NCBI GenBank assembly: GCA_030765585.1
Contig: JAVCCJ010000113.1
Location: 1-50,837, forward strand
Length of the DNA: 50,837 nucleotides
Direction of reading: 5' to 3'
Origin: Candidatus Zapsychrus exili
GTDB taxonomy: Bacteria; Omnitrophota; Gorgyraeia; Zapsychrales; Zapsychraceae
Shown here in pieces: positions 32,584 to 50,837 of this stretch. Each line of letters begins with the position of its first letter. Position 1 is the first letter of the stretch. The notes beneath the pieces are model-generated. The model had not been told where the DNA came from, did not search any database, and saw only the letters and a list, made by a program, of their open reading frames with translations. The translations under genes and the position numbers were made by a program.

Positions 32584-33462
32584 TTAGTATCCTACCGAAT
32601 CAAATGAATGCTTAGAGCCTTCTGTTCTAAGCTCTAATATTCTATCTTTCGGAGACATAGTATTATTATTTTCTAAAACTCTTAAAGTATCTTCCTGAGT
32701 ATTAAACAAATTACTTTTCATATAAAACTTTGCTGCGGATACTGCGCTTTCTTGCGCCTCTTCTTTTAAATATTCTTCACCATTAGAACTATCATTAATG
32801 ATGTCTGCTAAACTTTTTCTTTGAGAAGAGCTATTTTTACCTAACCGCACCATTGCCTCAAGTTGAAAAGCAAAACTCTCCTCTTTAATTTCTCTTAACG
32901 ATGTAATAACTTCAAGTACCATCGCTATCCTTCCTCCCATATAATAAGAAAGCCCTAAGCCAAAATAAGCATACGGCAATTTCAATTTATTAGCAATTTC
33001 TTTAAAATACGAGACAGCAACATCTGGCTTATCTTTTCCTATAAGATAAATCCATCCCAAAGTAAGATATCCAGTTATATAATTTGGATCAAGCTCTAAC
33101 GTTTTAAGTCCATACTCTTCTGCTTTAACAAAATTTCCTAAAGAATAATAGAACTTAGCTAAATTATCATTAACCGGTGCGTATTTCGAATCTGCTTCTA
33201 TGGCTTTCTGATATATACCTATAACCTCGTCGTTACTTGCTCCCAACTCTTTCTTGCATAATGCTATGTAATTATATGCAGCAGCTAATTGAGGATATAA
33301 ATCAATGGCTTCTTGAAAACAGTCTACTGCTTCTTTGTATTCTTTTTGTTTATACAAAGAAAGTCCTTTTTCAAAAGCTTCTCTTATTGGGTTAACCTGT
33401 GCAAAAGAATCAAACTCTAAAAACATAACAAATAATAAAATTATAATAAAATATTTTTTCAT
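32584..33462 (-). CDS. Secreted TPR-repeat protein
   Basis: Signal peptide; repeated TPR patterns (AYNYIA, NLAKFYYSLG, GYLTLGWIY, AYFGLGLSY). Confidence 0.88.
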   Translation of the reverse strand: MKKYFIIILLFVMFLEFDSFAQVNPIREAFEKGLSLYKQKEYKEAVDCFQEAIDLYPQLAAAYNYIALCKKELGASNDEVIGIYQKAIEADSKYAPVNDNLAKFYYSLGNFVKAEEYGLKTLELDPNYITGYLTLGWIYLIGKDKPDVAVSYFKEIANKLKLPYAYFGLGLSYYMGGRIAMVLEVITSLREIKEESFAFQLEAMVRLGKNSSSQRKSLADIINDSSNGEEYLKEEAQESAVSAAKFYMKSNLFNTQEDTLRVLENNNTMSPKDRILELRTEGSKHSFDSVGY

Positions 33463-33517
33463 TTTTTATATAAATAGAAAGGTTAAAACAAGAAAAATGT
33501 AAAAAAATTTACCGCGT

Positions 33518-34090
33518 TTAAGGAGTAGAACTAGTGTTGGACATACCATGACCTATTATTAATTTAACAATAGTCATTGAGACATTTACTTCATCAGGAA
33601 ACCCTCGTTTTTCAGTCATATTAAACTTTACCACCTTAAGCATTTCTGATGTAGAGTTAATAGCATGCATAAAAGATATTATATTCTCCAAGTTGCCAGA
33701 ACAATCTAACTCTGCATAATATTCAATATATCTTTTTCGAGCCTCTGTTTTTGTGGGGTTGCTTCTTGCTAAATTTATATTTAAATTTGTTGCAAGCTTT
33801 TCAACAGTACTTAAAAAATCTGCACTAATTACATCTTCGTCTTCTATTTCATCTATAAAATAACTATCAAACACTTCATTTTCTTTTATAATCTTATCCT
33901 TATATTGCAAGAATCTAGCATCTCTCTGAATTACAGATTTTTGAGTCTCAACTTCTTTTTTAATATCATTCAGCTTGTCTAATACTGGACCCAAAAAAAG
34001 CCTATCTAATAAAGCTAAAGAAACTAATACAATAGCTATATAAAATATTTTCTTTTCTTTTTCTGAAAGTTTAGCAATGTATTGCTTCAA
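33518..34090 (-). CDS. pilO: PilO/GspM-like alignment subunit
   Basis: LSEKEKK + TM + coiled coil + 'LDCSGNLENIISFMHAI...LKV'; follows pilM. Confidence 0.75.
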   Translation of the reverse strand: MKQYIAKLSEKEKKIFYIAIVLVSLALLDRLFLGPVLDKLNDIKKEVETQKSVIQRDARFLQYKDKIIKENEVFDSYFIDEIEDEDVISADFLSTVEKLATNLNINLARSNPTKTEARKRYIEYYAELDCSGNLENIISFMHAINSTSEMLKVVKFNMTEKRGFPDEVNVSMTIVKLIIGHGMSNTSSTP

Positions 34091-34093
34091 CTA

Positions 34094-35575
34094 TTATTCC
34101 TCCTGTATTAAAGGCTTTTCAACCTCTTCTTCAAATGCAGACTCCAGCTTTAACTCAATCTCAAAAGCATGTGTATCTTTATTTCTATCTTTTTTAGCTG
34201 TCATAGATTTAATATCTGCGCTCTTAAACAACTCTGATTCTTTTAATGTTGTTCCTAAATTAAAAACTAACGATGCTATATCTGATATTCCCTGAATATT
34301 AATAACTCCATCTTCATTCATAGAAATATTCGTTAAATACATTTCATTTGGAACGTTTAGATAGAGCTCATTAACAACATCTAAACCTATCATTCTACTT
34401 GCAAGATAGCTTTTAATTATTCTAGTTTCTAAAGATCTTTGCTCTAGAGCCATAACTTCTTGACGATTTGCACGAAGTTCATCTTTAATCTTATTTAAAA
34501 ATGAATTCTGAAAATAAATCTTAAGCCCAAGAACACATGCTATTAAAATTAAAACAACAAACCCTAGCGTAGCAGTTTTAAAAGCTTCCTTACCTTGCTC
34601 TTCTATTGTTTTCTGAAATTGAACCTCTTCAGGCATCAAATCTATATTTACTTCTTCTGCCTCAACAGAAGAAACAACCAAGTCCAAGAATGAATTATTT
34701 CCAAAATCTACTCCTAAACGCTTTAAGGCCCCTTGCGTTGCCTTAATATTGTCAACATATGATATAGCCTCAACTTCCCAATTTAATTTCTCTTTCAACA
34801 TATCTTTTAGTCCATCAAATTCATCTTGCATATTTGCCAAAATATATTTTGATGGTACTTGCTCTATATCTTCGTTCTTATAAGACTCTAATGTCTTTTT
34901 TAATTCTTCTATTAATTTGCTTTCATAATCTAAGTCTTCTTTTAACAATTGATTTTTTCCTACTGGTATACTTCGCGACGCTATTGCTAAACCACGAAAA
35001 GCAATAACAAAATTTGTTGAGTCTGCTCCAACATCAATAATACCAACAGATAAAGATTTATTTTCTAAATCAAGAGCTTTAGAATAAAAAGACGCTATTG
35101 CCTCTGAAGGAAAAATAACTTTATTTATTTTAAGACCAACTTTATCGAGAACCTCTAGCTGCTTCTTAAGAATATTCTTATTAACAATGATAAGCAAAAC
35201 TTTTGTATAATTAGTTTTGTATACTCCTATGTTAATGAAATCGACTTCTATCTCTTCTCTAGAAAAAGGTGTATGTCTACCAGCTTGAAGATTTACAATA
35301 GATTTAATTTCTTCAGGCTCGATAGAAGGAATTTCAATATTTTTAGTAGTCACCACACTAGGATCTATAACACAATATACGTTGGCTGATTTCACAGGAA
35401 ATCCTTTTAAAGTTACATTGATGATTTTAGGCAAACTTACTTCATCAACACCTTTAATATCCTGTGCTATTGCATTTATAATTTTTGCAGAAGAACCTAT
35501 ACCTTTAACGTGAGACACTTTAAGCGTATCTTCGCTTAAAGTTATAGATATACTGTCATTGCTTTTTCTTACCAT
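34094..35575 (-). CDS. pilM: PilM-PilN fusion (GspL-like)
   Basis: Actin-like domain (IIDVGADST, SRSIPVG), 'IDLMP' linker, TM and a PilN-like periplasmic domain. Confidence 0.8.
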   Translation of the reverse strand: MVRKSNDSISITLSEDTLKVSHVKGIGSSAKIINAIAQDIKGVDEVSLPKIINVTLKGFPVKSANVYCVIDPSVVTTKNIEIPSIEPEEIKSIVNLQAGRHTPFSREEIEVDFINIGVYKTNYTKVLLIIVNKNILKKQLEVLDKVGLKINKVIFPSEAIASFYSKALDLENKSLSVGIIDVGADSTNFVIAFRGLAIASRSIPVGKNQLLKEDLDYESKLIEELKKTLESYKNEDIEQVPSKYILANMQDEFDGLKDMLKEKLNWEVEAISYVDNIKATQGALKRLGVDFGNNSFLDLVVSSVEAEEVNIDLMPEEVQFQKTIEEQGKEAFKTATLGFVVLILIACVLGLKIYFQNSFLNKIKDELRANRQEVMALEQRSLETRIIKSYLASRMIGLDVVNELYLNVPNEMYLTNISMNEDGVINIQGISDIASLVFNLGTTLKESELFKSADIKSMTAKKDRNKDTHAFEIELKLESAFEEEVEKPLIQEE

Positions 35576-35666
35576 CGCTAAACGCTACTCCTTTTAATAA
35601 TATAATTTTACAATAATATTATTATAATTTAAATTATTAATTTATATAAATAAAAATTCATTTTTT

Positions 35667-36704
35667 TTACCGCTCCCTATAATACTCAAACTTATTTTCT
35701 TTTACGCTATAAACACACTTTGCAAGTAAATTTTGCTTACCGCTGCCTAATTCTCCCTTACTTTTTATAAGATAAAAATAAGAATTCGTTGTTAGAAGCC
35801 CTGCAGTATTAACTGAATCAATTTGTTTTGCCTCTGATTCTTTAAGCTCAACAAATTGAGTAATTTCACTAGCTATATCATGTGTTTTATAAAAAACATA
35901 ATCATCTTCCGTCGCCTCTTGCCTGTCCAAACCACGCCTTACAATAAATATCTTATTTACAACGCTTTCGTCAATGCCAAGTGACAACAAAACTTGATGA
36001 GAAGCTGTATTTATATTTACCGCCCCATCACCATATATGGTAATAAACGGTTCTATTTTATCAAATATCTCCTTGGTCATTCCCTGTACTAACAATAACT
36101 CATCAATTATCTCAAACTCAGCATTCTTAATTCTATAAGGATACTTTAAACTATCATAATAATAATCACTATAAAATCCTTCCAATTGCGTAGACCCAAA
36201 TTCTCTCCAAGAAATAATTGCCTCGGTCAAATCAATAGAATCTTGTTTATTTAATAAGTTAAGACTATATACAAGTCTTCTTAATATATCTCTTGATACT
36301 GTATTTATATTTATTTTGCTTTCCTCGTCAACAATTCCATATCGTATATATGAATTTAGAAAAGTATCATCGAAATAAGAATACTCAACATTACAAAGCC
36401 CATCATTTAATTTTATATCTTTAAACTTTTCAGGATTATTATGTCTATAGAATTTACTATAAGAAGAATAAATTTGCTTACTTCTCATTAAATCTTGTCT
36501 TAATATTGCAACAGCTTTTTTTATTCCAGCTTCTGCTGTAAAACGCAACTTACTTCTATCTTCTATTCTGTGCAACAAAGTAACTCTTTGTCGCACTTTA
36601 AGTCCTATATGTACCGCAAATATAGTCAAAAAGGACAACGTCCATAATGCGACTATTAAAACCGATCCAATTTTATTATTTTTATAAACAATATGTTTCT
36701 TCAT
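35667..36704 (-). CDS. gspK: T2SS minor pseudopilin GspK
   Basis: GSVLIVALW, AEAGI..A, DEESKININT, ELLLVQGM, VNINTAS..VL. Confidence 0.92.
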   Translation of the reverse strand: MKKHIVYKNNKIGSVLIVALWTLSFLTIFAVHIGLKVRQRVTLLHRIEDRSKLRFTAEAGIKKAVAILRQDLMRSKQIYSSYSKFYRHNNPEKFKDIKLNDGLCNVEYSYFDDTFLNSYIRYGIVDEESKININTVSRDILRRLVYSLNLLNKQDSIDLTEAIISWREFGSTQLEGFYSDYYYDSLKYPYRIKNAEFEIIDELLLVQGMTKEIFDKIEPFITIYGDGAVNINTASHQVLLSLGIDESVVNKIFIVRRGLDRQEATEDDYVFYKTHDIASEITQFVELKESEAKQIDSVNTAGLLTTNSYFYLIKSKGELGSGKQNLLAKCVYSVKENKFEYYRER

Positions 36705-36707
36705 ATA

Positions 36708-37310
36708 TCAATAACCAACAATAATATTAATAAACTTATTAGCTTTCCTTTTCCCTCTTTTATCTGTAAATTCAACCGTCACCTCTAAACCTGAAGGAAA
36801 GGTTTCCAATGTTTTATCACTTTCAATTTCTCCACTATCTGTAGAATAAAAATATTTAAATCCTAAGCTATCAACAGGACCTACCAAAAGTCTGGCTTTA
36901 AAAAACTTATCACTTTCTGCTTTGCTATAATTTGCTTCTCTTTTATAAATACCTCCATCGAGTGAGTCAAAATAATATTCAACTTTGCCAATCTGATTCA
37001 CATATCCTTCTTTTTTCTGTGTGCTTCTAGGATCTGCTGGTGTATATACTATGGTGGGAAAAGAAAATTTATTATCAGTTCCTTCAAAACTTATTTTTGA
37101 ATAATAAAAAGTATTTCTTAAATCACTATTTATTTTATCAAAAAATATAACAATATCTTCTTCAATTAACGCATAATTGCTTCTGTCCCAAACTCGTAAA
37201 CCATTTGCTAGCGCATTATACAAAGCTATGCTAAGAACAGAAAACAAAGAAATAACTATAAGAACCTCAATGAAAGTCATAGCATTCTTTTTAAATATTT
37301 TATTATTCAT
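36708..37310 (-). CDS. gspJ: Minor pseudopilin GspJ-like
   Basis: KKNA/MTFIEVLIV prepilin motif; 'INSDLRN'; 'FPSGLEVTV'. Confidence 0.8.
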   Translation of the reverse strand: MNNKIFKKNAMTFIEVLIVISLFSVLSIALYNALANGLRVWDRSNYALIEEDIVIFFDKINSDLRNTFYYSKISFEGTDNKFSFPTIVYTPADPRSTQKKEGYVNQIGKVEYYFDSLDGGIYKREANYSKAESDKFFKARLLVGPVDSLGFKYFYSTDSGEIESDKTLETFPSGLEVTVEFTDKRGKRKANKFINIIVGY

Positions 37311-37319
37311 TTTATTTAC

Positions 37320-37730
37320 TTATTTATTATCAAGATCTCTAAATTCAGAAATATACTTAGAGCGAGATATGTTTAATTCTTTATTATTTTCTTTCCAAGA
37401 CAACTTTAAATCTAATTTAAAAACTTCTACAAAATCTTCTATTTCGCCTATGCTAACATATTCCTTAAATCCCACCTTTTTCCCGCCAACATCCACCTCT
37501 CTTACCTGCTGTTCATCAAATGGCAAGGCTCCATAAACTTTCAAAAAACGATCTATTCTTTCTATACGATTATCTAAAAGCGTTGTTGCATATAATCTAT
37601 TGGTAAGATAATTCATCCTATCGAGGGAAATGAGAAAAGACTTAAAAATCATAACTATGCCAACAGAAAAAATCACCAAAGTGACCATAACTTCTATAAA
37701 AGTAAAACCATTTTCTCTATTGAATCGCAC
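37320..37730 (-). CDS. Minor pseudopilin GspI/PilV-like (start revised to GTG at 37730)
   Basis: MRFNRENG/FTFIEVMV. The longer start in the ORF track overlaps gspG. Confidence 0.8.
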   Translation of the reverse strand: MRFNRENGFTFIEVMVTLVIFSVGIVMIFKSFLISLDRMNYLTNRLYATTLLDNRIERIDRFLKVYGALPFDEQQVREVDVGGKKVGFKEYVSIGEIEDFVEVFKLDLKLSWKENNKELNISRSKYISEFRDLDNK

Positions 37731-37752
37731 GTTTTTTATGGAAGATCTCTTT

Positions 37753-38175
37753 TTACCAATTAATAATATCATCACTACTTGAACTTGTGTCTTTACCTTC
37801 AGATGAAAGATCATAATCAGGATTATGCTTTCCCGGAGAAACATAAACATAATCATTTCTCCACGGATCAGCAGGATCTTTCTCTAAGTAAGGACCATTC
37901 CAATTAGAAGGAATTGGGCTAGTTGAGGATTTTATTTTTAAAGCCATCAAACCTTGACTAGTCGTAGGAAACTGTCCATTGTCTAGCTCATAGAGCTTAA
38001 GGCCTGTTGCAATATTTGCTTCAATATCCGATTTTGCAACAGATACTTTTGCTTGTTCAGAACGACCAACCAGCCTTGGTATAACCATGGCAGACAGAGC
38101 TGCTATAATTGTTACAACAAGCATAATTTCTACTAACGTAAATCCACTTTTATATTTACTAATATTTTTAAACAT
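37753..38175 (-). CDS. gspG: Major pseudopilin GspG
   Basis: G/FTLVEIM, LKLYELDNGQFPTT.QGL.AL, WNGPYL, DPW...Y.Y.SPG, DDIINW; GGAGG RBS. Confidence 0.96.
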   Translation of the reverse strand: MFKNISKYKSGFTLVEIMLVVTIIAALSAMVIPRLVGRSEQAKVSVAKSDIEANIATGLKLYELDNGQFPTTSQGLMALKIKSSTSPIPSNWNGPYLEKDPADPWRNDYVYVSPGKHNPDYDLSSEGKDTSSSSDDIINW

Positions 38176-38340
38176 AATATATCCTCCCTATAAAAAATAT
38201 TTACTTTTTATACTGTTATATATATCTATATTTATCATACTATACAAATTAATTTTTTATATATCTTAACTATTTTTTTTAAAATCATATATATCGTAAA
38301 ATATACTAATATATTCACTATAAAGAATTAATATACTTAC

Positions 38341-39549
38341 CTAGCGAGCCAAAACATCTATCTGAAATATTGGAAGCAACATTGCAAAAACAATAAAACC
38401 TACAATCAAGCCAATAGCAAGTATCATTATTGGTTCCAGCAAGGTTGTTATCACTTTTATCTTCTCTTCTGTCTCTTGTTCATAAGAATCAGCTATATCG
38501 TTTAATACACTATTTAAATTTCCAGATTCTTCTCCAACAGATATAAGATGTCCCATCATAACTGGAATTTGTTCACACTTTCTTATTCCATCACCAAATG
38601 ATCCACCTGCGATTAAATCATCCTTACACTTAACAAAACTTAGCTTTATAACTTCATTACTCATAATTGGAATAGAAATTCTAATTGCATTAACTATAGA
38701 TATTCCACTATTAAGCAATAAAACTACTGTTCTACAAAAACATGCTAATTCATTTCTTAAAACAATTTCTCCAAATATAGGAATGCGTAATAAAATATTG
38801 CTTATTGCAAGATGTCCTTTTTGAGATTTCGCCCACCTAATAATTCCAAAAACAATAAGAAGAATAGCTAGAATAATTACTATTGCATACTGATTAAATA
38901 AATAACTTATTTTTAACAATATTATTGTTGGCAACGGTAAAGTATCTGCTATGCTTTCAAACAATCCCGCCATCCTAGGAAGAACAAAAGTTAAAATAAA
39001 ATAAACAGATACCAAACCCATAAAAAACATAAAAAGAGGATATGCTAAAGCTGATTTAACCTTGGCTGTTATCTGCTGCTGCTGATATTGATACTCTGAT
39101 ATTTTTTCAATTACTTCTTCTAAATTATTGCTTTCTTCCCCCACAGTAACCATAGTAATATATAATTGAGAAAATAAGCTTGGATATACCATTAAACATT
39201 CAGAAAAAGATTTTCCGTTTCTTATTCCCAAGCCAATCGCTACAATTATTCTTCTAAAAGTAATATTTTCAGTCTGATCTTCAATAATAGACAATGCCTT
39301 TAAAATAGAAACACCAGACTTAAGGAGATTTCTCAATTGTTTATTGAAAATATAAAGTTCTTTTCTTTTAATCTTTTTTATTTTATTTAAATCTATGGAA
39401 AGGTCTTTTGAAGATTGTGACTTAACAAAAATTGGCAATAAACCTAACTCGTTTATCAATTCTATCGCTTCATCCTGAGTATTGGCCGAAATAGTTCCTG
39501 TTACTGTCTTTATCGTTCCTTTTTTTGCTTTATATATAAACGTAGTCAT
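38341..39549 (-). CDS. gspF: T2SS/T4P platform protein GspF/PilC
   Basis: QL..LLKSGV, GEES, ALAYP, GEESGNL, LLEP, AMLLPIF. Confidence 0.95.
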   Translation of the reverse strand: MTTFIYKAKKGTIKTVTGTISANTQDEAIELINELGLLPIFVKSQSSKDLSIDLNKIKKIKRKELYIFNKQLRNLLKSGVSILKALSIIEDQTENITFRRIIVAIGLGIRNGKSFSECLMVYPSLFSQLYITMVTVGEESNNLEEVIEKISEYQYQQQQITAKVKSALAYPLFMFFMGLVSVYFILTFVLPRMAGLFESIADTLPLPTIILLKISYLFNQYAIVIILAILLIVFGIIRWAKSQKGHLAISNILLRIPIFGEIVLRNELACFCRTVVLLLNSGISIVNAIRISIPIMSNEVIKLSFVKCKDDLIAGGSFGDGIRKCEQIPVMMGHLISVGEESGNLNSVLNDIADSYEQETEEKIKVITTLLEPIMILAIGLIVGFIVFAMLLPIFQIDVLAR

Positions 39550-39559
39550 ATTATATCTA

Positions 39560-41779
39560 CTAGATAACTTGTCGCTTCATCTGAAGCTTTGTTTTTTCCT
39601 TAAGTTTTTTCTCAACAAATTTATTTATTAAAGCCCTATCTGCGCCTGATATATCTAAATAATAAGAGACAATTGTATAGATATTCTTAAGACTATCTTC
39701 TTCTAGACGACAAATCTTGGCTAAACAGCCTATACTTTTCTGACCCTCTTCTAACTGTATCTTAAGCTCAATAAGAGATCCGGGTTTAATCATTACTTTT
39801 GAAATAAATTTCAAACCACCCGCACTTATATCTTCTGCTATTGTAGGATATTCAATGCCATCTGACACAAGAGAATTCGGATCACTAGAACTTCTGTTTA
39901 CTAAACTATACCTAATCTTTACCTGTGCACTTGCTCTTGGATAAATTCTACCTTTATGAGAATTGTCATTTTTAACGTCAGAACTTTCCGTGTTTTTTTC
40001 AAAACTCTCTTCTATATCAGAATCCATTTTATCATCTGACATAGAAGCACCTATGCAAGAGCTATCATCTTTTACTGTAAAATTTATAACCTCATCAGGA
40101 GTTGTTAGCCCATTATAAACGGCTTTCCATCCATTTTGACGAAGAGTAACCAGGCCTTCTTTTATTGCTATTTGTTTTATATAATCAGAGCGTGGTTTTT
40201 CTAAAATAGCTGTCCTAATCGCATCATTAAGAGTAAGTATTTCATAAATGGCCATCCTTCCATAAAATCCAGTACCATTACAATAATCACACCCTTTTCC
40301 CTGATAAACTTTTACATCATCTATACTTGCTAATCCCAAAGAGCTTGCCATTTCTTCTTTTACTTTTACTTGTATATTCTTTGTTTCTTCTTTACATTTT
40401 GGACAAATAATACGAATTAATCTTTGCGCTACAAAAGCCTCAACACTTGACGCAACCAAATAAGGCTCTACTCCCATATCAATTAATCGAGTTATACCAC
40501 TTGCAGCATCGTTTGTATGTAAAGTAGAAAAAACAAGATGTCCTGTTAAGGCTGTTCTAATAGCAATTTCTGCAGTCTCAACATCGCGAACCTCACCCAC
40601 CATCAGAATGTCAGGGTCATGTCGCAACACACTTCTTAAGCCCTCTGAAAAGCCAAAGCCTACTTTAGGATTAACCTGAACTTGTGTAACCCCATCCATC
40701 TCATATTCTACCGGGTCTTCTATAGTAATAATCTTTCTTTCATGTGTATTAATTTCATTTAAACAAGCATAAAGAGTTGTAGTTTTTCCAGATCCCGTTG
40801 GACCTGTCATAAAAATAATTCCATGAGGCTTACTTATTAAATCTTTAAATTTACTTATACTCTTAGTATTAAAACCTAACTTTTCAAGACTAAACAACAT
40901 AACTTTTGTAGGTAATATTCTAATAACCATACCTTCTCCTCTTGGAGTTGGCATAGTAGAAATTCTTAAATCAAGATGCTGATCTTTTGTCTTAACAACC
41001 GCACTTCCATCTTGAGGCAAACGCTTTTCAGTAATACTTAAATTTGCCATAATTTTAATTCTAGATAAAATAGGATGCAAAAAATGCTTAACTTCTTTGG
41101 GTAGATTTGCATCAACCAAAACTCCATCTACTCTATATCTAAACCTTACTCTGTCGCGATATGGTTCGATATGTATATCAGTCGCACGTTTTTGATATGC
41201 TTCAAGTATAATTTGATTAACAAGTTGAGCTACAGTAGGATCTTCTGATTTTAATTCAATATCTTCAACCCATTTACCACTATCAGAAGAAGAAACTGTT
41301 TCTTTTACAGGATCTTTTGACATAATCTTGTCAATTGTATCTGATGCAAGTCCATAATGTTTCTTAATAACATCTAGAATACGTCCGTCTTCAACAAGAA
41401 CTATATTAATATCAAATCCGAGATGCATTCTTATTTCGTCTTGAATTTTAATATCTAAAGGAAATTCAACTGCTATAGTTAAAACATCATCTTTTATAAA
41501 TATTGGCATAAATTTATAATGCCATACAAACTTGATTGGTATAGTATTAATCAAGGATTGCTCGACAGAAACATCTTGCAAATCAAGAACATCTAAATTC
41601 TCGCTCTGAGATAAAGATATTAATAATTGTTTTTTTGTAATAATTTCGTTGGTAAGAAGATATTCTTTAAATGAAATGTTCTTTGCTTGGCTTTCAACTA
41701 AATATTTTTTTATATCTATTTCAGAAAGAACATTGTTTCTAACTAAAGCTTCTTTGAGGATCCTATTTATCTGATTCAT
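39560..41779 (-). CDS. gspE: GspE/PilB assembly ATPase with C-terminal PilZ domain
   Basis: ATDIHIEP, RYRVDG, RLPQDG, GPTGSGKTTTLY, TIEDPVEY, LRHDPD..MVGEVRD, TGHLVFSTLH and a tetra-Cys motif; PilZ motifs RIYPR and DISAGG. Confidence 0.95.
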   Translation of the reverse strand: MNQINRILKEALVRNNVLSEIDIKKYLVESQAKNISFKEYLLTNEIITKKQLLISLSQSENLDVLDLQDVSVEQSLINTIPIKFVWHYKFMPIFIKDDVLTIAVEFPLDIKIQDEIRMHLGFDINIVLVEDGRILDVIKKHYGLASDTIDKIMSKDPVKETVSSSDSGKWVEDIELKSEDPTVAQLVNQIILEAYQKRATDIHIEPYRDRVRFRYRVDGVLVDANLPKEVKHFLHPILSRIKIMANLSITEKRLPQDGSAVVKTKDQHLDLRISTMPTPRGEGMVIRILPTKVMLFSLEKLGFNTKSISKFKDLISKPHGIIFMTGPTGSGKTTTLYACLNEINTHERKIITIEDPVEYEMDGVTQVQVNPKVGFGFSEGLRSVLRHDPDILMVGEVRDVETAEIAIRTALTGHLVFSTLHTNDAASGITRLIDMGVEPYLVASSVEAFVAQRLIRIICPKCKEETKNIQVKVKEEMASSLGLASIDDVKVYQGKGCDYCNGTGFYGRMAIYEILTLNDAIRTAILEKPRSDYIKQIAIKEGLVTLRQNGWKAVYNGLTTPDEVINFTVKDDSSCIGASMSDDKMDSDIEESFEKNTESSDVKNDNSHKGRIYPRASAQVKIRYSLVNRSSSDPNSLVSDGIEYPTIAEDISAGGLKFISKVMIKPGSLIELKIQLEEGQKSIGCLAKICRLEEDSLKNIYTIVSYYLDISGADRALINKFVEKKLKEKTKLQMKRQVI

Positions 41780-41781: not shown

Positions 41782-43287
<1,506 letters not shown>

Positions 43288-43334
43288 TTAATCCTTTCAA
43301 AAACATTCCTGTCTACCAACAGGCAATCTTTATT

Positions 43335-44186
43335 TTACTTCATGGACATCATTCTTGCAGAAAATGTCTCTCTTAAACTTTTATCAATATCACTTTTCTT
43401 AACTTTTCTATACTTTATAGCTGTCTTAGCTTGTTCTTTTTTCATTTTATCGACACTATCGTCGAGAAATGCTGCTAAAGCTGCAGCGGACGCAATATTG
43501 CTGTCAATAAATATCTCATGCAACCTAACTGTTACCCATAAATTGGCCAAATAACCAATAATATCTTTCGAATCAGATTCTTCTATAACATTCTCAAATG
43601 CATCAACAAACTCTGTTTGTTTTGAAACAAGATCTTCGCATGGCAATAAAGGGATAACTCTAGCTTTTTGTGAATCAAAAGATTTAGACCAACAATACAC
43701 AACAACAACCTTTCCAATCTCACCTTTCATTATTCTATCTACCAAATAATCTTTTATCTCAACTGCCATATTATACATTCCCTTAGATTCCATACCAGAG
43801 AACATCTTTAAATCAGGAGTATATGCTTTCAATCTATCAATAGCTTTATTTCCAACAGCTATAAATTCAAAATCTTCATACCTATCTTTTACTTTAACTG
43901 CGGCTCTTAATATCTTGTTATTAAACTTTCCTAAAAAACTTCCTTCAATAGTTATGACCAGTATAGCGACCTTCTTGCAATCATTAGACATCAAAAAATG
44001 TTTTGTCCTGGTCAAACTTATCATTCTAAAAAATTCTACAAACGTCTCTCCAAAACGTCTGAATTTTTCCTTATCTGATAATAACATAAAAAACTTATTA
44101 TCCGCAATATCCTTTAAAACCTGGATGAGATAAACCATTTCAATTGCGTCTCGTAATTCAAACTTAACTTTATTTGCTTTTCCCAT
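43335..44186 (-). CDS. atpG: F1 gamma-like subunit (highly divergent)
   Basis: Length, position, 'ILVITIEGSFLGKFNNKI', 'IAVGNKA', 'PLLP' and long terminal helices. Confidence 0.8.
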   Translation of the reverse strand: MGKANKVKFELRDAIEMVYLIQVLKDIADNKFFMLLSDKEKFRRFGETFVEFFRMISLTRTKHFLMSNDCKKVAILVITIEGSFLGKFNNKILRAAVKVKDRYEDFEFIAVGNKAIDRLKAYTPDLKMFSGMESKGMYNMAVEIKDYLVDRIMKGEIGKVVVVYCWSKSFDSQKARVIPLLPCEDLVSKQTEFVDAFENVIEESDSKDIIGYLANLWVTVRLHEIFIDSNIASAAALAAFLDDSVDKMKKEQAKTAIKYRKVKKSDIDKSLRETFSARMMSMK

Positions 44187-44193: not shown

Positions 44194-44943
44194 TTAGCTT
44201 TCTTTCATCTCTATTTGCTCTTGCATAACAATCCCTCTTTCTCTTATTAAGTTTTGAACACTTCCATCTAGAGCCATGCTTCCAAATCTTAATATAAGAC
44301 CTCCACCAATAGATTCGTCAGTACTTGTATTAACAGACACATCTCTTCCTAATTTATCTTTTACTATAGAAAGTATTTGAGACTTTACAAAATCATTGAC
44401 TGGGTTAAAACCGACTATATCTATTGTGTTTATATCTGCGCTTATTCTGCTCATATCAATGTCTTTTAACTTTTCAAGGAATTCTTTAATAAGCACATCA
44501 TCTAAGGGTCCCTTAGACTCTTCGCTTAAAACATCATTTAAAATTTCCATAGCATATTTTACAACTTTAATATCATTATCTTTTTCCATATCAAAACGTA
44601 TTTTTTCTTTAGAGCCTTGAGCTTTTGCAATAATATCTTCACCCTCTTCTCTTGCCTTGCCAACAATCTTATCTCTTTCCGCCCTAAACTCTTCTTCAAC
44701 TTCAGATCTCATTCTGTTCGTAAGCTCACTCGCTTCTTTTTGTTTCTCTGCTAATTCTTCACTAGCTTCTTTTATTTTCTTACTTAATTCTTCCTGCTGA
44801 GCTGCCATCCTATTATTCTCTTCGTTTAATTTCTGGACAGCTCCTTCAGTACTCGCAACAAGAGATCTGTGCAAAAAGAATATAATTCCACCAGCAACAA
44901 TAAATGTTAAAACCAAAAATTTTATTATTAACCCCATTATCAT
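44194..44943 (-). CDS. Fused b (AtpF)-delta (AtpH)-like peripheral stalk protein
   Basis: N-terminal TM + coiled coil (AREEGEDIIAKA), then delta-like C-terminus 'DESIGGGLILRFGSMALDGSV'. Confidence 0.82.
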   Translation of the reverse strand: MIMGLIIKFLVLTFIVAGGIIFFLHRSLVASTEGAVQKLNEENNRMAAQQEELSKKIKEASEELAEKQKEASELTNRMRSEVEEEFRAERDKIVGKAREEGEDIIAKAQGSKEKIRFDMEKDNDIKVVKYAMEILNDVLSEESKGPLDDVLIKEFLEKLKDIDMSRISADINTIDIVGFNPVNDFVKSQILSIVKDKLGRDVSVNTSTDESIGGGLILRFGSMALDGSVQNLIRERGIVMQEQIEMKES

Positions 44944-44969: not shown

Positions 44970-45197
44970 CTAAAAAAATATATAAAATACAGTCAAAGAC
45001 AAAAATGTTATTATCTCGACGACAACCAACTGAATTAAAATACCCATCTGTATCGTCGGTGTCTTAGAAGGGTACCGCCCCATAGATTCTATAGTTCTTT
45101 TTCCTAAAGCAGCAATTATAATACAAGGTATGATTATTATTACACTAAACATTGCTGAAAATATAAAACTTTCAGACCATAGATTAAATTCAACCAT
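44970..45197 (-). CDS. Second, more divergent c-subunit-like hairpin
   Basis: 75 aa with two TM helices, loop GRYP (cf. ARQP/ARNP) and Glu in helix 2 (VVVEII). Confidence 0.7.
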   Translation of the reverse strand: MVEFNLWSESFIFSAMFSVIIIIPCIIIAALGKRTIESMGRYPSKTPTIQMGILIQLVVVEIITFLSLTVFYIFF

Positions 45198-45207: not shown

Positions 45208-45426
45208 CTATTTTGAAAATAATTGAAATATAATTAAAATAGCGATTATAGCTATAGCCTCAACAAATATAAGCATAACAATCATACCCATAAATATTTT
45301 AGAAGCAGCCGAAGGGTTTCTTGCTAAAGCCTTTATAACCGCATTACCTAAAACAGCTATAACAATGGAAGGCCCCATAACAGCCACCATCATAACTCCA
45401 ACAATGATCATTGTTTCAGCTAACAT
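45208..45426 (-). CDS. atpE: c-subunit-like proteolipid
   Basis: 72 aa; loop ALARNP; 'FVEAIAI' carboxylate. Confidence 0.85.
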   Translation of the reverse strand: MLAETMIIVGVMMVAVMGPSIVIAVLGNAVIKALARNPSAASKIFMGMIVMLIFVEAIAIIAILIIFQLFSK

Positions 45427-45446
45427 AATTAATCCTTACTTTAATT

Positions 45447-45722: not shown

Positions 45723-45753
45723 AATCTCTTATAAAATATGCTGACGTGAATTC

Positions 45754-47391
45754 TTACTCATCATCGTCATCTAATTCTATCTCGCCAAAGTCCTTTTGTT
45801 TATTTATTTTAGATGTTACATCGTCTAATACATCTTTTCCTATATTCGCCACAATCCCCTCTCCTACATCGTCCTCTGATGAAGCTTCACCATTTTCCTC
45901 AGCTTCTTTGGCAGCATCTATTTTATCCTGCTCTGCTTTTATATTGCCAACATATTCTTCTAAAATACTTACAAGTCCTTTATCTATTTCATCATCCATT
46001 TTTCTGCGCTCTCTAAGCAATGCTACTAGTTCTGAATTCTTTCCTTTTGCAAAATCATAAACTTCATCTAACATGGTTTGCACTCTAGCCATGTTAGGCA
46101 TCTGCTGTATATATTTTCTCTTAAAACTAAAAAGAATCAAAACCAAAGCTTCCATAATAACAGGCTGATTTTTATCCTGTCTTAACAATAATGTTAATAT
46201 TTCTCCGCTTTTTAATTGTTCTAAAACTTCATCTGACAATTGTCTTCCAACCCTTAACTTTGTTGCTTTTTGAAGCTCTCTAAATTGAAGATATTCTAAA
46301 CGTAAAAATCTACTTAGTTCTTTAATAATAGGCCATTGAACTTTTGCACCTACTCGAGAAACTGAAAGCCCTAAGTCAAGTGCTGGCTTTTGCCCTTCAC
46401 CGAAAAGAGTAGAATCTAACATTATCTGCCCATCTGTCATAGAAATAAGATTAGATGGAACAAACGCTGTTAAATCTCCTTCCAAAATCTCTACTGCTGG
46501 CAAAAATGTCATTGAGCCAGAACCATGCGCTTCATCTAAATAACATGCTCTTTCAATCATTTTTGAATGAAGATAAAATATATCGCCAGGATATGAGTCT
46601 CGACCAGGCGCACGACCTAAGAGCAAAGAAATTTCACGATAACACCATGCATGTTTAGTAAAGTCATCAAATCCTATGAAAACATGTTTACCTTGACTTC
46701 TAAAATGTTCACCTAATGAGCAAGCAACATATGGAGATAAGTATTGTTGTCCTGGAAGGCTAGAAGAAGGTGCTGCCACAATAATAGAATAATCAAAAGC
46801 ATTGTTCTCTTGAAAAAGCTGAACAACACGAGCCAACTGAGATCTTGCCTTTCCAATAGCACAATAGATACAAATAACACCTGTATGTTTTTGATTTAAA
46901 ATAGTATCTGTTATGATAGTTGTCTTACCAGTCACTTTGTTACCTAAAATTAACTGGCGCTGACCCAGTCCAATAGGAATCATTGAATCTAGTACCTTAA
47001 TCCCAGTTTCTAAAGTCAAACACAATGGCTGTCGTTCTAAAATAGCAGGAGCAGATGGAAATATAGGATTATAAGCGCTTGACTCAATATCTCCTAAGCC
47101 ATCTATAGGCTCACACAAAGAATTTACTATACGACCAACAAATGCATTTCCTACAGGAATATTAAAGGGCTCTAAAGAAGCCCTAACCTCATCACCTGTT
47201 TTAATTCTTTCAGACTCTTTTATAAGAAGAACATGTGTTTCTTCCTCGGTAAAACCTAAAACCATACCTTGAGTTCCAAACCCAAAGTTAATAATCTGAC
47301 CATTAATACAACTCTTAAGGCCACTTACAACAACTATGCAGCCGCGAATACTTTTGACTCGACCAACTTCTGTATAGCGTAACTCTGCCAC
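45754..47391 (-). CDS. atpA: F1 ATPase alpha-like subunit (divergent)
   Basis: TGIKVLDSMIPIGLGQRQLILG, GNKVTGKT, REISLLL.R.PGR..YPGDIFYLHS..IERA, NLISMTDGQI, SVSRVG; acidic C-terminal extension. Confidence 0.93.
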   Translation of the reverse strand: MAELRYTEVGRVKSIRGCIVVVSGLKSCINGQIINFGFGTQGMVLGFTEEETHVLLIKESERIKTGDEVRASLEPFNIPVGNAFVGRIVNSLCEPIDGLGDIESSAYNPIFPSAPAILERQPLCLTLETGIKVLDSMIPIGLGQRQLILGNKVTGKTTIITDTILNQKHTGVICIYCAIGKARSQLARVVQLFQENNAFDYSIIVAAPSSSLPGQQYLSPYVACSLGEHFRSQGKHVFIGFDDFTKHAWCYREISLLLGRAPGRDSYPGDIFYLHSKMIERACYLDEAHGSGSMTFLPAVEILEGDLTAFVPSNLISMTDGQIMLDSTLFGEGQKPALDLGLSVSRVGAKVQWPIIKELSRFLRLEYLQFRELQKATKLRVGRQLSDEVLEQLKSGEILTLLLRQDKNQPVIMEALVLILFSFKRKYIQQMPNMARVQTMLDEVYDFAKGKNSELVALLRERRKMDDEIDKGLVSILEEYVGNIKAEQDKIDAAKEAEENGEASSEDDVGEGIVANIGKDVLDDVTSKINKQKDFGEIELDDDDE

Positions 47392-47405
47392 TCTTTATCT
47401 CCTTG

Positions 47406-48737
47406 CTATGTTGTTTTCTCTTTTTCGTCTTCAGGTTCTTCTAATTCTTCTTCTTTTAAATTCTTAGATCTTTTTCCCCAAACAACAAAATTAATTATTG
47501 TAAATATAGCAACAAATGCCATAATGCCATAAATGATTTTCCAAACAGTAGACATTAACGGCTTCTCTCCAAACATTGCAGCAGCTATTGCAGCAATAGT
47601 GTTAAGAAGGGTTATTTTTTGCAATACATTCTTTAACGAACTTCTTTCAAAATATTCACGAACAGCTCTCAATAAATTTTCTAAAACTACAACATCTTTT
47701 TTTACAGTATCAAAAAGTTTCTTATTAGTACGATAGGCACCTATATGCTCTTCTATTTTTTTTTCCTGCGTCTGAGATTCTTCTATTTTCTTCACATTTT
47801 CTTTGATACTAGTTACCAAAAAATCTGCACTATTTGCATATTCAGTTGTCTTAAGTAATTTATAAGCATGTCCAGTTCTAAACTTTATATCATCTATATC
47901 TGTCTGAAGAATACTCCATACATCAACAACCTCTATCTTGTATCTCTTAGTTTCGCTAGGAAGAAGATCTTCTTCTCTTGAAAGATAAGATTTTCCCTTT
48001 CCTGCATCATAACGAACACTAAAGCCTTCTGCATTAACAATATGTTCTGGCTTAACCTCTGCGGGAAGATAATGCTTCCTATCAGCTGTATTAATAGTAT
48101 CTTTGGTTGGATTGTTAATATCTATGATGAAATTTAATACATTAGCTTCTTGGAAATCTGGAGGCTTAGATCGCCAATAATCGATAGAAAAAGCATCACT
48201 TCTAATATTTTCTATCTCTTGAGAATATATACTATATCTACCAATTCTTTCTTCTACGTTCTCGCTATTATCTTCTTGCTGCTCTATGATACTATCGAGT
48301 CTTTGAAGTAAACTTTCTTTTCTTATTTTTCCAATTTCATAATATTCAGTATCTGCTATTAATCCTAAGCTCTCATTTATTTGCTTCTTTATTCCATCAA
48401 TCTCGCCTGTGTCTACTTGCCATGTATCTTTGAGCCGAACTTTAAAAGTTTTAGTTTCTTTAGCACTTAAACTTACTTCGCCTTGAACCATATATCTTTC
48501 TTCATTTACATCATAATCTAATTTTAGACCAGATGTATCAAGAACATTTTCGGATTTAAGTCCAATCGGTAAATAATATTTTATATTTGTTTCTTTTAGC
48601 TTTTCTGTTCCATTAACAGTAAGAATATTAATAGTTACATCTGCACAGGCATATTTAACAAAACCAAAAGCAAAAATTATACACAATAAAAGAACAATAA
48701 TTTTTTTAAAATATTTTTCCAAGTTTTCCTGCATCAT
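47406..48737 (-). CDS. Exported, C-terminally anchored protein with two tandem ~175-aa domains
   Basis: Signal peptide; duplicated N.T...K.YLP..[LV]K.E....G....YD......L...ETK..K....D.W; C-terminal TM and charged tail; start overlaps the upstream stop (TAATG). Confidence 0.8.
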   Translation of the reverse strand: MMQENLEKYFKKIIVLLLCIIFAFGFVKYACADVTINILTVNGTEKLKETNIKYYLPIGLKSENVLDTSGLKLDYDVNEERYMVQGEVSLSAKETKTFKVRLKDTWQVDTGEIDGIKKQINESLGLIADTEYYEIGKIRKESLLQRLDSIIEQQEDNSENVEERIGRYSIYSQEIENIRSDAFSIDYWRSKPPDFQEANVLNFIIDINNPTKDTINTADRKHYLPAEVKPEHIVNAEGFSVRYDAGKGKSYLSREEDLLPSETKRYKIEVVDVWSILQTDIDDIKFRTGHAYKLLKTTEYANSADFLVTSIKENVKKIEESQTQEKKIEEHIGAYRTNKKLFDTVKKDVVVLENLLRAVREYFERSSLKNVLQKITLLNTIAAIAAAMFGEKPLMSTVWKIIYGIMAFVAIFTIINFVVWGKRSKNLKEEELEEPEDEKEKTT

Positions 48738-50836
48738 TAGTCACTCTCAAACCAAGTCTTTATTATAATTTCACTTTCAGTTACAGATTCTTTTATCGCT
48801 GAAATCTTAGCATCAATTTCCTCTAGTTTTTCATTAACCTTCTCAGAGTCTTGTCTTTCCTCTTCCACTAACTTCTTAACCTTAAGACCTAGACCTAACG
48901 AATCTGCGCTTTGATTTACCAATTCTCCTAATATATCCATCATCTCAACAGCTGTTGATTGAGAATCGCTGCTCATATCTGATATTTCATATACAACCGC
49001 TTCTATTTCACTTAAAGCTCCCTCTAGATCATCAACTTTTGTATAGAGATTTGGTGTTTGTCCGTCTATACCTAAATCTGTCTTTATTTCCTGAATGATG
49101 CTCAACGCAGAATCTGCACTTTGTTTGCCTTTGTTAGCATTTTCATTGATATTATTTAAACGCCCAAATACTGAGTCTGCTGTTTCTGCATCGCCAGCAA
49201 CACCTGTTAAAGCTTCTAGATTGTTTAAATCACCAAATATTGTTGAGTCAGCAGAAGTATCGGCTTCATCGCCTAATACGCTCTCTATAGTTGTTACCTT
49301 TGTTAATATAGTTCTTATATCAGTACCACCAACAGCGTCTTTAACATCAGCGATTTTTCCAAACAATGTACTTGACGCAGAAGTATCAGATGATGTACCC
49401 ACTAAACTATTGATAGTGTTTACAACGCTTAATATAGTAGTGACGTTTCCAACAAGAGCCTGTGCATTATCAGCAAAATAATTTAATCCATCCCAGTTGA
49501 TATTCTTACTTGTCATATCAGCTAGATCACTCCAATTGATATTAGAAGTAGTTGATGCTGCCATATCTTCCCAGTTCATTCCAGTTCCTGACATATAAGA
49601 TATATCAGCCCAATTTATTCCAGATGCTGACATTGAAGCTATATCGTCCCAATTAATTCCGGTTTCACTAAGAACTGTAATCTCATCCCAGTTTATGCCA
49701 GCTGCTGACAATTCTCCAAAATTATACCAATTAGCTCCAGCGCTGCTTAACACACCTATATCATCCCAGTTAACACCTGTTTCGCTCATCACATCTATAT
49801 CGTCCCAATTAATTCCAGCATTAGATAGAGATCCTATATTGTCCCAATTGATTCCAGCGTCGCTCATATCATTAATGCCTTCCCAATTAACGCCAGCATC
49901 ACTTAGATCTTTTATTTCTACCCAATTTACACCTGCTGCAGATAGTTCTGCGAAATTATACCAATTTGCTCCAGCACCACTTAACACTCCTATATCGTCC
50001 CAGTTAATTCCTGTTTCTGTTAAAACTTCTATATCTTCCCAATTGATTCCAGCGCCTGATAGTTCTCCAATGTTTGTCCAATTGATTCCAGCGTCGCTTA
50101 AAGAATTAATATCTTCCCAATTAATTCCTGTGTCTGACATAATGTCGATATCGGACCAATTAATTCCTGCATCAGACATATCTCCAATACTTGTCCAATT
50201 AATACCACTACTTGACATGTTTCCTATATTAGACCAATTAATGCCTGTATCTGACAATACATCAAAGTCAGACCAATTAACTCCTGCATCTGAAAGAACA
50301 TCTAAATCAGACCAATTAATTCCGGCGTCACTCATTACATCAAAATCGGACCAGTTAATACCAGTTTCAGTTAGCGCTCTTATATCATCCCAATTGACAC
50401 CTGCGTCTGAAAGTACATTTATATCTTCCCAATTAACACCAGCTACTGATAATCTTCCAATATCGTCCCAATTAATACCTGTATCTGAAAGAACATCTAT
50501 ATCAGACCAATTAATTCCTGCAGAAGACATGTCTCCAATGCTTGTCCAGTTGATACCATTACTTGACATATTTCCTATATTAGACCAATTAATGCCTGTA
50601 TCTGACAATACATCAAAGTCAGACCAATTAATACCAGTTTCACTTAACGCTCTTATATCATCCCAATTAACACCTGCGTCTGAAAGAACATTGATGTCAT
50701 CCCAATTAACACCTGTATCTGAAAGAACATCTATATCAGACCAATTAATACCAGTTTCACTTAACGCTCTTATATCATCCCAATTAACACCTGCGTCTGA
50801 AAGTAGATTTATATCTTGCCAATTAACACCAGCTTC
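48737..50836 (-). CDS. Large 13-aa-repeat protein, C-terminal part (5' end outside the window)
   Basis: The frame is open to the window edge, with 35 visible S-x-x-G-[IV]-N-W-x-D-I-x-x-[LM] units, then G...D.....[TS][LIV]FG repeats and a coiled coil. Confidence 0.9.
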   Translation of the reverse strand, partial: EAGVNWQDINLLSDAGVNWDDIRALSETGINWSDIDVLSDTGVNWDDINVLSDAGVNWDDIRALSETGINWSDFDVLSDTGINWSNIGNMSSNGINWTSIGDMSSAGINWSDIDVLSDTGINWDDIGRLSVAGVNWEDINVLSDAGVNWDDIRALTETGINWSDFDVMSDAGINWSDLDVLSDAGVNWSDFDVLSDTGINWSNIGNMSSSGINWTSIGDMSDAGINWSDIDIMSDTGINWEDINSLSDAGINWTNIGELSGAGINWEDIEVLTETGINWDDIGVLSGAGANWYNFAELSAAGVNWVEIKDLSDAGVNWEGINDMSDAGINWDNIGSLSNAGINWDDIDVMSETGVNWDDIGVLSSAGANWYNFGELSAAGINWDEITVLSETGINWDDIASMSASGINWADISYMSGTGMNWEDMAASTTSNINWSDLADMTSKNINWDGLNYFADNAQALVGNVTTILSVVNTINSLVGTSSDTSASSTLFGKIADVKDAVGGTDIRTILTKVTTIESVLGDEADTSADSTIFGDLNNLEALTGVAGDAETADSVFGRLNNINENANKGKQSADSALSIIQEIKTDLGIDGQTPNLYTKVDDLEGALSEIEAVVYEISDMSSDSQSTAVEMMDILGELVNQSADSLGLGLKVKKLVEEERQDSEKVNEKLEEIDAKISAIKESVTESEIIIKTWFESD

Positions 50837-50837
50837 G
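49485..50837. repeat. Coding 39-bp tandem repeat array
   Basis: ccaattaat/ccagttaa recurring every 39 bp, with higher-order blocks of 117 and 351 bp. Confidence 0.95.

Follow-up and report, generated by a model that had tools for sequence, protein, structure and literature searches.

The gene run described here occupies positions 32584-50837, on the minus strand, of a stretch of 50,837 nucleotides (nt) from Candidatus Zapsychrus exili (GenBank assembly GCA_030765585.1, contig JAVCCJ010000113.1, positions 1 to 50,837 of the forward strand), a whole stretch which we call the window. This run is a locus for the 'symbiotic', or non-respiratory, F-type ATPase of Omnitrophota, an enzyme derived from F1Fo that has lost the ion-channel subunit a. 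Its genes stand between two neighbours: on one side those for the end of a giant repeat protein and for the membrane anchor of this protein, on the other those for a pseudopilus apparatus resembling type II secretion systems (T2SS). The best reading, which we hold with moderate confidence on the basis of the sequences, is that the ATPase is an ATP-hydrolysing rotor that would serve the envelope machine encoded with it. The closest named relatives of the locus are metagenome-assembled genomes of Candidatus Omnitrophota.

Gene calls based on open reading frames, Pfam and NCBIfam resolve the locus into a single co-directional run on the minus strand (table 1), and confirm the gene order and coordinates given in the initial annotation of this DNA. 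They also confirm the tight packing reported there: the stop of the giant gene overlaps the start of the anchor gene, 14 nt separate the anchor from alpha, and within the ATPase set the gaps range from 7 to 50 nt (alpha-epsilon 31, epsilon-c1 20, c1-c2 10, c2-b-delta 26, b-delta-gamma 7, gamma-beta 50), while only 2 nt lie between the stop of beta and the start of gspE. The labels given earlier to the E, F, G, K, PilM-PilN, PilO and TPR genes stand, but the one called I reaches only a sub-threshold GspI score (33.2 bits vs a cut-off of 44.35) and the one called J is so named by its position. In terms of family membership, the locus has the alpha and beta, gamma, epsilon, c, b and delta components of an F-type enzyme and lacks subunit a; gamma, the N-terminal domain of epsilon, c and the C-terminal part of OSCP all exceed their Pfam gathering scores.

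The absence of subunit a extends to the whole genome of the organism. No match to PF00119, the family of this subunit, was found in its 2.04 Mb (129 contigs, 96.25% complete), the identical search having detected the subunit in 9 of 14 control genomes; nor is there an AtpI gene among the proteins of the locus as scanned with Pfam. The ATP-synt_ab family has matches at five places in the genome, namely alpha and beta of the locus, an A/B pair of V-type on contig C59 and a weaker one on contig C87. The V-type operon on C59 is complete, with E, A, B, D, an I subunit above the Pfam cut-off and a c/K proteolipid, and the locus does not, therefore, encode the sole rotary ATPase of the genome. In an order-level sample of 41 genomes, source genome included, a gene for subunit a is present in 28. 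In 25 of these it lies on the same contig as, and within about 5 kb of, a beta gene whose product is 43-49% identical to our query, which identifies an ordinary canonical operon, and in the remaining three it sits on small contigs. The other 13 genomes have no such gene, and 12 of them, with a completeness of 71-96%, still carry the beta that is linked to secretion genes. Within the linked sets fetched at order level no match to subunit a was found in any case: it lies on another contig or, in the relative G037, about 460 kb away. The complete chromosome CP070807.1 has its sole a gene at 35.8 kb, beside canonical alpha and beta, about 550 kb from a channel-less set at 587-590 kb.

The catalytic subunits form a lineage of their own. 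With the V-type A subunit of the genome as root, a tree of 36 beta rows places 21 secretion-linked sequences in one clade, with a support of 97 in the Shimodaira-Hasegawa-like approximate likelihood ratio test (SH-aLRT), and 14 canonical sequences, eight from Omnitrophota and six from other phyla, constitute the other (SH-aLRT 87); in an alpha tree of 52 rows, a branch with support of 96 separates 37 sequences of the linked clade from the rest, both trees being quick LG+G4 reconstructions with a very long outgroup branch. Two loci of Rhodobacteraceae (L049 and L050), taken as N-ATPases from their beta-before-alpha order alone, fall outside the linked clade, which is nested in neither ordinary F-ATPases nor N-ATPases. 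Alpha passes the F-type model TIGR00962 with 489.1 bits (cut-off 484.45) and beta passes TIGR01039 with 524.8 bits (cut-off 462.85). Both fail the models for N-ATPases (TIGR03324, 448.3 vs 750.5 for alpha; TIGR03305, 451.6 vs 752 for beta), for the gliding ATPase of Mycoplasma (NF045863, 378 vs 600; NF045858, 424 vs 850) and for its type 3 enzyme (NF045936, 281 vs 520; NF045934, 394 vs 570). The best matches of alpha and beta in the Protein Data Bank (PDB) are all canonical F1 enzymes. The canonical betas listed score 386-458 bits and the beta of the G1-ATPase of M. mobile (9io5_A) scores 344 bits, below every one of them; no G1 alpha appears among the best 60 matches of alpha. By these curated definitions, alpha and beta are outside the type 2 and type 3 families of Mycoplasma, which does not disprove the grouping of alpha with the same types by Seymour et al. 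(2023, Nat Microbiol, PMC10066038).

The subunits combine an intact catalytic core with a modified stalk. Beta has the P-loop GGAGCGKT, the catalytic glutamate of GER, the Walker B aspartate and a DELSETD motif, all intact in its sequence, and alpha keeps, in the alignment, the P-loop GxKxTGKT and the arginine of SVSRVG. However, the secretion-linked alphas of both gene orders described below start at the crown domain, and a segment of about 20-25 residues that forms the N-terminus of canonical alphas, from Omnitrophota as well as other phyla, is absent from all of them. This segment binds delta/OSCP in known enzymes. The b-delta fusion, in turn, consists of an N-terminal transmembrane (TM) helix, a coiled coil and, of delta/OSCP, no more than the C-terminal part (PF00213 positions 100-165 of 172), the N-terminal domain of delta being absent; its best NCBIfam match is the N-ATPase b model TIGR03321, far under the cut-off. 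Since both the alpha segment and the delta domain are missing, the joint between head and stalk is altered on its two sides. Epsilon is reduced to its beta-sandwich domain (PF02823 at residues 8-81; positions 2-86 of 130 in TIGR01216), without the C-terminal helices which in canonical enzymes inhibit hydrolysis. A short epsilon fits a hydrolysis mode because the usual brake is gone. The alphas belonging to the gene order of the window also end in a tail in which the motif NIGxDxLxxxTSK is conserved; in the window's own alpha this tail is acidic.

The membrane rotor, on its part, is strongly conserved. The c1 subunit retains the RNP loop and the glutamate of its second TM helix, which is present in the window, in 12 of 13 orthologues of the same gene order and in all five loci of the second order (17 of 18 orthologues in total), the single replacement being a serine in L022, a locus with the order of the window. 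With a mean column identity of 0.85, c1 is the best conserved protein of the ATPase set (0.54-0.66 for segments of b-delta and about 0.57-0.58 for c2), so that the c-ring is not a relic. The adjacent c2 has no Pfam match and only weak matches to c subunits in NCBIfam; aligned to c1 with hhalign, it gives a probability of 98.1% and an E value of 1.1e-13 with the glutamates of the two proteins in register, and c2 is by this comparison a true paralogue of c. Its glutamate is kept in 11 of 13 sequences, and searches with tblastn detected no c2 outside the taxonomic order of the source organism.

The association of this ATPase with secretion genes recurs throughout the phylum. Among 20 order-level loci, 14 have the gene order of the window and six a second order, anchor-epsilon-c-b-delta-alpha-gamma-beta, and in all of them gspE-gspF-gspG follow directly after beta. 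When the named loci are added, 27 were examined, which reduce to 25 distinct ones after discounting two that duplicate fetched contigs, and gspE adjoins beta in 24. The same junction is present in all 18 loci from other families or classes, the betas of which are 48-65% identical, as well as in L092 and in the metagenome locus L095; L093 and L094 end at beta and were not counted. The total is 44 of 45 assessable loci across the phylum, and an arrangement so recurrent is far beyond chance. The exception (L048, positions 580985-594364 of the complete chromosome CP070807.1 mentioned above) is a stand-alone c-b-delta-alpha-gamma-beta set in which no gene for epsilon, the anchor or Gsp proteins was detected; its neighbours are NAPRTase, AhpC-like and MoxR-type genes, and it falls within the secretion-linked clade in both the alpha and the beta tree. 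In a sample of 201 genomes of the phylum, 120 have a beta matching the query at E <= 1e-140, a threshold of our own choice; the canonical betas of close relatives score from about 1e-102 to 1e-136. Apparent fusions of alpha with gamma and of beta with GspE in one locus (L039, G003:C12; frames of 783 and 1017 residues) were rejected, as they are mimicked by in-frame runs of N, read as X, at 5420-5520 and 7670-7770 (400 N in the locus).

The genes following beta have the order of a canonical T2SS operon (gspE, F, G, I-like, K and genes in the L and M positions). GspE and GspF have their top matches in the respective NCBIfam models, yet under the equivalog cut-offs. The PilM-PilN fusion and PilO take the places of GspL and GspM, and PilO has a sub-threshold match to GspM (38.1 bits vs a cut-off of 60). 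According to Pfam, GspE carries an N-terminal MshEN and a C-terminal PilZ domain. This amounts to two putative modules for sensing cyclic di-GMP (c-di-GMP) on one motor ATPase, even if the alignment of GspE stops near residue 570 in several relatives, indicating that the PilZ part is not universal. The genes for the secretin and for the gspC-like protein lie outside the window. In G037, the giant gene is preceded on the same strand by genes for a T2SSC-like protein, a secretin, a TPR protein and two FGE-sulfatase-like proteins, and the same five genes are found in the same order on a 6.8-kb contig of the source genome, C44, which ends in the second FGE-like gene and encodes a secretin 62% identical to that of G037. 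Contigs C44 and C13 of the source genome are joined here by synteny rather than by assembly. From this we infer the full order gspC-like, gspD, TPR, two FGE-like, giant, anchor, seven ATPase genes, gspE-F-G to the L/M-like genes and TPR, in which a T2SS-like operon would be split, between gspD and gspE, by an insertion that includes the ATPase block. The insertion measures about 30 kb and comprises the TPR gene, the two FGE-sulfatase-like genes, the giant, the anchor and the seven ATPase genes.

Several observations concern this wider region. A tandem pair of secreted FGE-sulfatase-like proteins always precedes the giant gene (L073 3662-6842 on C44; L068 15126-18339 in G037), and their Pfam family is that of the gliding and type IX secretion system (T9SS) proteins GldJ, GldK and PorK. 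G037 further encodes a free-standing protein of 113 residues (L068:9621-9962) with similarity confined to the C-terminal part of OSCP/delta (E 1.1e-8); its gene has glycosyltransferase genes as neighbours and is situated upstream of the gspC-like gene, at a distance of 3 kb, and no match to it was found in the source genome. The 2 Mb of the source genome are unusually dense in pilus and secretion machinery, with 10 matches to T2SSE-family ATPases and eight to secretins at about seven loci, and they have a single prepilin peptidase gene, on contig C72.

The 'repeat protein' of the initial annotation is present, but it is only the tail of a giant protein. The part within the window has 13-residue units of the form GxNWxDIxxLSDx followed by a non-repeat end of about 250 residues, and no Pfam family matches this tail at the cut-off. 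The orthologue of G037, on a contig of 1.34 Mb, is a single open frame of about 8,090 residues (L055:367 to L028:4628) with a Sec-type signal peptide, a non-repeat N-terminal part and thousands of residues made of 13-residue GVNWxDLxVLSxx units. The last 300 residues of the giant are predicted with low confidence (pLDDT 64.3). The AlphaFold model of the anchor, built with 14 orthologues, is better (pLDDT 79.7): it predicts a signal/TM helix, two tandem modules of beta-sandwich plus three-helix bundle, a C-terminal TM helix at residues 395-432 and a short charged cytoplasmic tail. Foldseek found nothing for this model in the PDB at E <= 0.001, VIA-align returned only generic three-helix bundles (Z up to 10.5) and no specific fold, and a search of the ESM Atlas retrieved exclusively clusters of Omnitrophota.

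A profile search of 1.84 billion representatives found 951 relatives of the anchor at E <= 0.001. Five of the best 150 exceed 1,100 residues and have the match at their C-terminal end; in the four inspected, as well as in L095, the end of the giant and the anchor form one chain. In P0033, for instance, residues 1158-1396 align with the last 248 residues of the window's giant, through its final IKTWFES (E 3e-10), and residues 1397-1833 align with the mature anchor (E 4e-47), the alignment starting at anchor residue 32, a position just beyond the predicted signal peptide. Because no signal peptide intervenes between the two parts, the protein is genuinely a single chain rather than the product of a read-through. 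One of the fused forms clusters with an NCBI protein of Omnitrophota, and on L095, a metagenome contig without N, a 42%-identical fused relative is followed by epsilon-c-b-delta-alpha-gamma-beta-gspE-gspF. The existence of single-chain forms elsewhere implies that the giant and the anchor are two halves of one unit, which, as predicted from these sequences, is a surface protein that its C-terminal helix fastens to the inner membrane. The column identity of that helix (0.58) equals that of the periplasmic part (about 0.57-0.58), the signal peptide having only 0.28, and such conservation hints at specific contacts within the membrane.

Further fusions of giant and anchor, suggested by the length of open frames in several genomes of the phylum, were not borne out: none of the three loci fetched (L092-L094) is fused. 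In two of them the genes for giant and anchor are in frame, separated by one stop codon (L094, 6373-6377) or two (L092, 5164-5174), perhaps as a remnant of the single-chain form.

In functional terms, the complex, having no ion path, would be unable to make ATP from a gradient. We propose instead that ATP hydrolysis at the inner membrane drives the rotation of gamma, epsilon and the c-ring relative to alpha3beta3 and b-delta; the rotor would turn without moving ions. Its work may then serve an envelope machine formed by the pseudopilus apparatus, the secretin encoded upstream and a surface protein of about 8,000 residues that the 443-residue anchor would hold in the inner membrane, the candidate receivers of torque being the TM helix of the anchor, the GspF/L/M platform or other components. 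The initial annotation had likewise argued that this is no ATP synthase but an ATP-driven module for secretion or surface machinery. What it had said or expected of the missing atpB, of further rotary ATPases in the genome, of a separate alpha/beta clade and of a conserved atpD-gspE junction agrees with our results, and its functional proposal survives as the best-supported and probable reading, of which the forms suggested there, a c-ring translocase or a motor that cooperates with the pseudopilus, are candidates. Three facts weigh against it. The loss of the N-terminal segment of alpha and of the N-terminal domain of delta leaves unexplained how the stalk holds the head; the carboxylate of c1 is retained as one would expect of an ion-coupled ring; and the stand-alone set of CP070807.1 implies that linkage in cis is not obligatory.

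One specific version of the proposed rotor is possible, if somewhat unlikely: the c-ring might be the output shaft of a rotary or reeling adhesin motor, the torque of which would pass to the conserved C-terminal TM anchor of a fibre of about 8,000 residues, and this fibre would run through the T2SS-like conduit and the secretin. If true, a rotary ATPase would have been recruited once more, and independently, to the mechanics of the cell surface, with the membrane rotor retained, unlike in the type 2 and 3 enzymes of Mycoplasma. For the rotor in general, possible analogies are FliH/FliI/FliJ of type III export and the gliding motor of Bacteroidota, which is rotary and has a giant adhesin, SprB, as well as the FGE-family proteins GldJ and GldK.

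Among the alternatives, the one surviving best, though unlikely in our judgement, is that the enzyme is still ion-coupled, an unrecognised partner such as c2, the TM helix of the anchor, GspF or a protein encoded elsewhere having replaced subunit a in a complex that either pumps or is driven by a gradient. The glutamates of c1 and c2, the rank of c1 as the most conserved subunit and the anchor helix, as conserved as folded domains, all speak for it, and the carboxylate of c1, being the main fact that a channel-less rotor does not explain, keeps this explanation alive. A membrane-embedded arginine defines subunit a and its V-type equivalent. Yet the TM stretches of c2, b-delta and the anchor show no such residue; moreover, our searches detected no c2 outside the taxonomic order of the source organism, and one c1 of the window's type has replaced the glutamate.

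We give a low probability to operon hitch-hiking, whereby the ATPase would have a housekeeping role, for example in the homeostasis of pH or ATP, unrelated to the secretion machine. A stand-alone set among unrelated genes in one complete genome fits this idea, and so does the discussion of the F-type ATPases of other ultra-small bacteria as homeostatic (PMC11484514). It is difficult to reconcile, however, with a junction that persists in nearly all loci despite a beta identity down to 48% and two internal gene orders, or with a spacing of 2 nt between beta and gspE in the window; furthermore, in the absence of an ion path the complex can have no effect on pH.

That the F1-like head is non-rotary, serving export as an ATPase for docking or unfolding in the manner of FliH/FliI/FliJ, seems very unlikely. 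The b-delta fusion does resemble the arrangement of FliH, and the ATPase set is embedded in a secretion operon; but c1, gamma and epsilon are all retained and conserved, and the Sec-type signal peptide of the giant leaves a cytoplasmic unfoldase with no obvious substrate. Finally, it is highly improbable that the channel-less set is a second, ordinary ATP synthase, completed by a subunit a that the canonical F-type operon supplies: such an operon is available in 28 of the 41 related genomes, but 12 genomes, including the source, carry the linked set with no a detected, the two clades are deeply split, and the stalk and the N-terminus of alpha have changed.

Table 1. Genes of the ATPase and secretion locus in the order of transcription, with positions in the window and the basis of each assignment.
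Gene or product	Position	Strand	Basis or remark
Giant repeat protein, C-terminal 699 residues	48737-50837	-	5' end cut at the contig end
Anchored protein, 443 residues	47406-48737	-	Predicted bitopic envelope protein; no known family
alpha, F-type	45754-47391	-	Pfam; TIGR00962; alignment; tree
epsilon, 91 residues	45447-45722	-	PF02823; TIGR01216
c1 (c subunit)	45208-45426	-	PF00137
c2 (c-like hairpin paralogue, 75 residues)	44970-45197	-	hhalign vs c1
b-delta fusion	44194-44943	-	PF00213, partial profile
gamma	43335-44186	-	PF00231, 84.5 bits
beta	41782-43284	-	TIGR01039; tree
gspE (GspE/PilB-type ATPase)	39560-41779	-	Pfam and NCBIfam
gspF (GspF/PilC platform protein)	38341-39549	-	Pfam and NCBIfam
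gspG (major pseudopilin)	37753-38175	-	TIGR01710, 131.8 bits vs cut-off of 88.85
GspI-like prepilin-type protein	37320-37856	-	N_methyl motif; GspI model sub-threshold
Second minor prepilin-type protein ('J' by position only)	36708-37310	-	N_methyl motif
GspK-like minor pseudopilin	35667-36704	-	PF21687; NF037980, 87.1 bits vs cut-off of 130
PilM-PilN fusion in GspL position	34094-35575	-	Pfam and NCBIfam
PilO/GspM-like protein	33518-34090	-	Pfam and NCBIfam
TPR protein with weak PilW/Tgl-like matches	32584-33462	-	Pfam and NCBIfam

Scans for regulatory signals gave 83 promoter-like sites, no excess over the 94.7 expected from shuffles, and 11 terminator-like sites, not a signal above shuffles (6.6 +/- 2.4). 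The gap between gamma and beta contains, on the coding strand, a short hairpin with a T-rich tail (43308-43323), a weak feature given that terminator-like sites barely exceed the shuffles. Elsewhere in the window, there are genes for a 695-residue protein combining a cyclic-nucleotide-binding domain, a weak AAA_31 match and a patatin-like phospholipase domain (13337-15424, minus strand), for a 1,798-residue protein with a PEP-utilising mobile domain as its sole Pfam match (21560-26956, minus strand) and for an 837-residue oligosaccharyltransferase of STT3/PglB type (28070-30583, plus strand).

Contrary to the initial annotation, which saw here the strongest candidate for an undescribed system, the pairing of this ATPase with pilus-like genes was reported earlier. 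Seymour et al. (2023, PMC10066038) found non-respiratory F-type ATPase genes adjoining clusters for type 4a pili (T4aP) in 56 of 111 species of Velamenicoccia and the two lying within 10 kb of each other in 57 of 66 contigs from all classes, and reached the same general functional reading; according to them, the LiM enrichment of 'Ca. Velamenicoccus archaeovorus' is among the carriers of such a locus. The locus of the window belongs with their sF-ATP/T4aP loci, for it comes from Omnitrophota, has an alpha outside the canonical clade and has gspE 2 nt after beta; the likeness extends to the non-respiratory alpha/beta clade, the adjacent genes of GspE/PilB type and the giant open reading frames nearby, and no feature sets it apart from that kind. 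The presence of T2SS-like genes beside the giant genes of Omnitrophota has also been described (West-Roberts et al., preprint, and a 2026 preprint). In the accessible text of Seymour et al. (2023) no mention was found of the loss of a, the retained c-ring, the c-paralogue, the b-delta fusion or the anchor, and 'subunit a' has no occurrence in the searched text of its supplement; our literature searches, for the parts of the sources that were accessible, found no further paper on the Omnitrophota ATPase. New in this work are the insertion between gspC/gspD and gspE, the tests against family models, the joint loss of the N-terminal parts of alpha and delta, the conservation of c and the single chain of giant and anchor.

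Compared with canonical F1Fo (atpIBEFHAGDC), the locus has an alpha and beta that pass the models and homologues of gamma, epsilon, c, b and delta, but it differs in having no a or AtpI, another gene order and an extra c-paralogue, as well as in the truncated epsilon and alpha and in the C-terminal part of delta fused to b. N-ATPases (atpDCQRBEFAG) are similar in being a second F-type set beside the main rotary ATPase and in having a long b with no separate delta gene. They keep a, AtpQ and AtpR, whereas the window has the order alpha-epsilon-c-c'-b-delta-gamma-beta, no a gene, and an alpha and beta that fail the N-ATPase models. With a T2SS (gspC-O) the locus shares the gspE-F-G-I-like-K-L/M order and, in G037 and on C44, the upstream gspC-like and secretin genes, and differs from it by the 30 kb inserted between gspD and gspE and by a GspE with MshEN and PilZ domains. 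The type 2 and 3 clusters of Mycoplasma resemble the locus in that an F1-like ATPase has been repurposed to a surface role in a small, host-dependent bacterium, alongside membrane proteins of unknown family. These clusters have seven genes, for alpha-, beta-, gamma- and epsilon-like subunits and three unique proteins (Beven 2012, PMC3369863); no c or b-delta homologue is named for them in the accounts consulted, whereas the window locus keeps both. The type 2 enzyme is part of the gliding machinery (G1-ATPase) and the type 3 'F1-like X0' ATPase is required for the MIB-MIP system (Berlureau 2026, PMC12994834).

Rotary ATPases are textbook energy converters, and their rebuilding as the motor of another machine is rare, as in the gliding and MIB-MIP systems of Mycoplasma; FliI/FliH/FliJ are distant relatives among such rebuilt enzymes. 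Among the cases compared here, only the Omnitrophota version keeps the c-ring and the side stalk yet loses the ion channel, and the locus thereby allows a clean test of the role of a c-ring without subunit a, for which the gspD-gspE insertion, the anchor-giant fusion and the joint loss of the alpha N-terminus and the delta N-terminal domain offer experimental handles. Omnitrophota have been described as ultra-small and host-dependent, with giant proteins and pilus-like machines implicated in attachment or predation (Seymour et al. 2023, PMC10066038; West-Roberts et al., preprint), and it is to these giant surface proteins and pilus-like machines that the ATPase locus is tied throughout the phylum.

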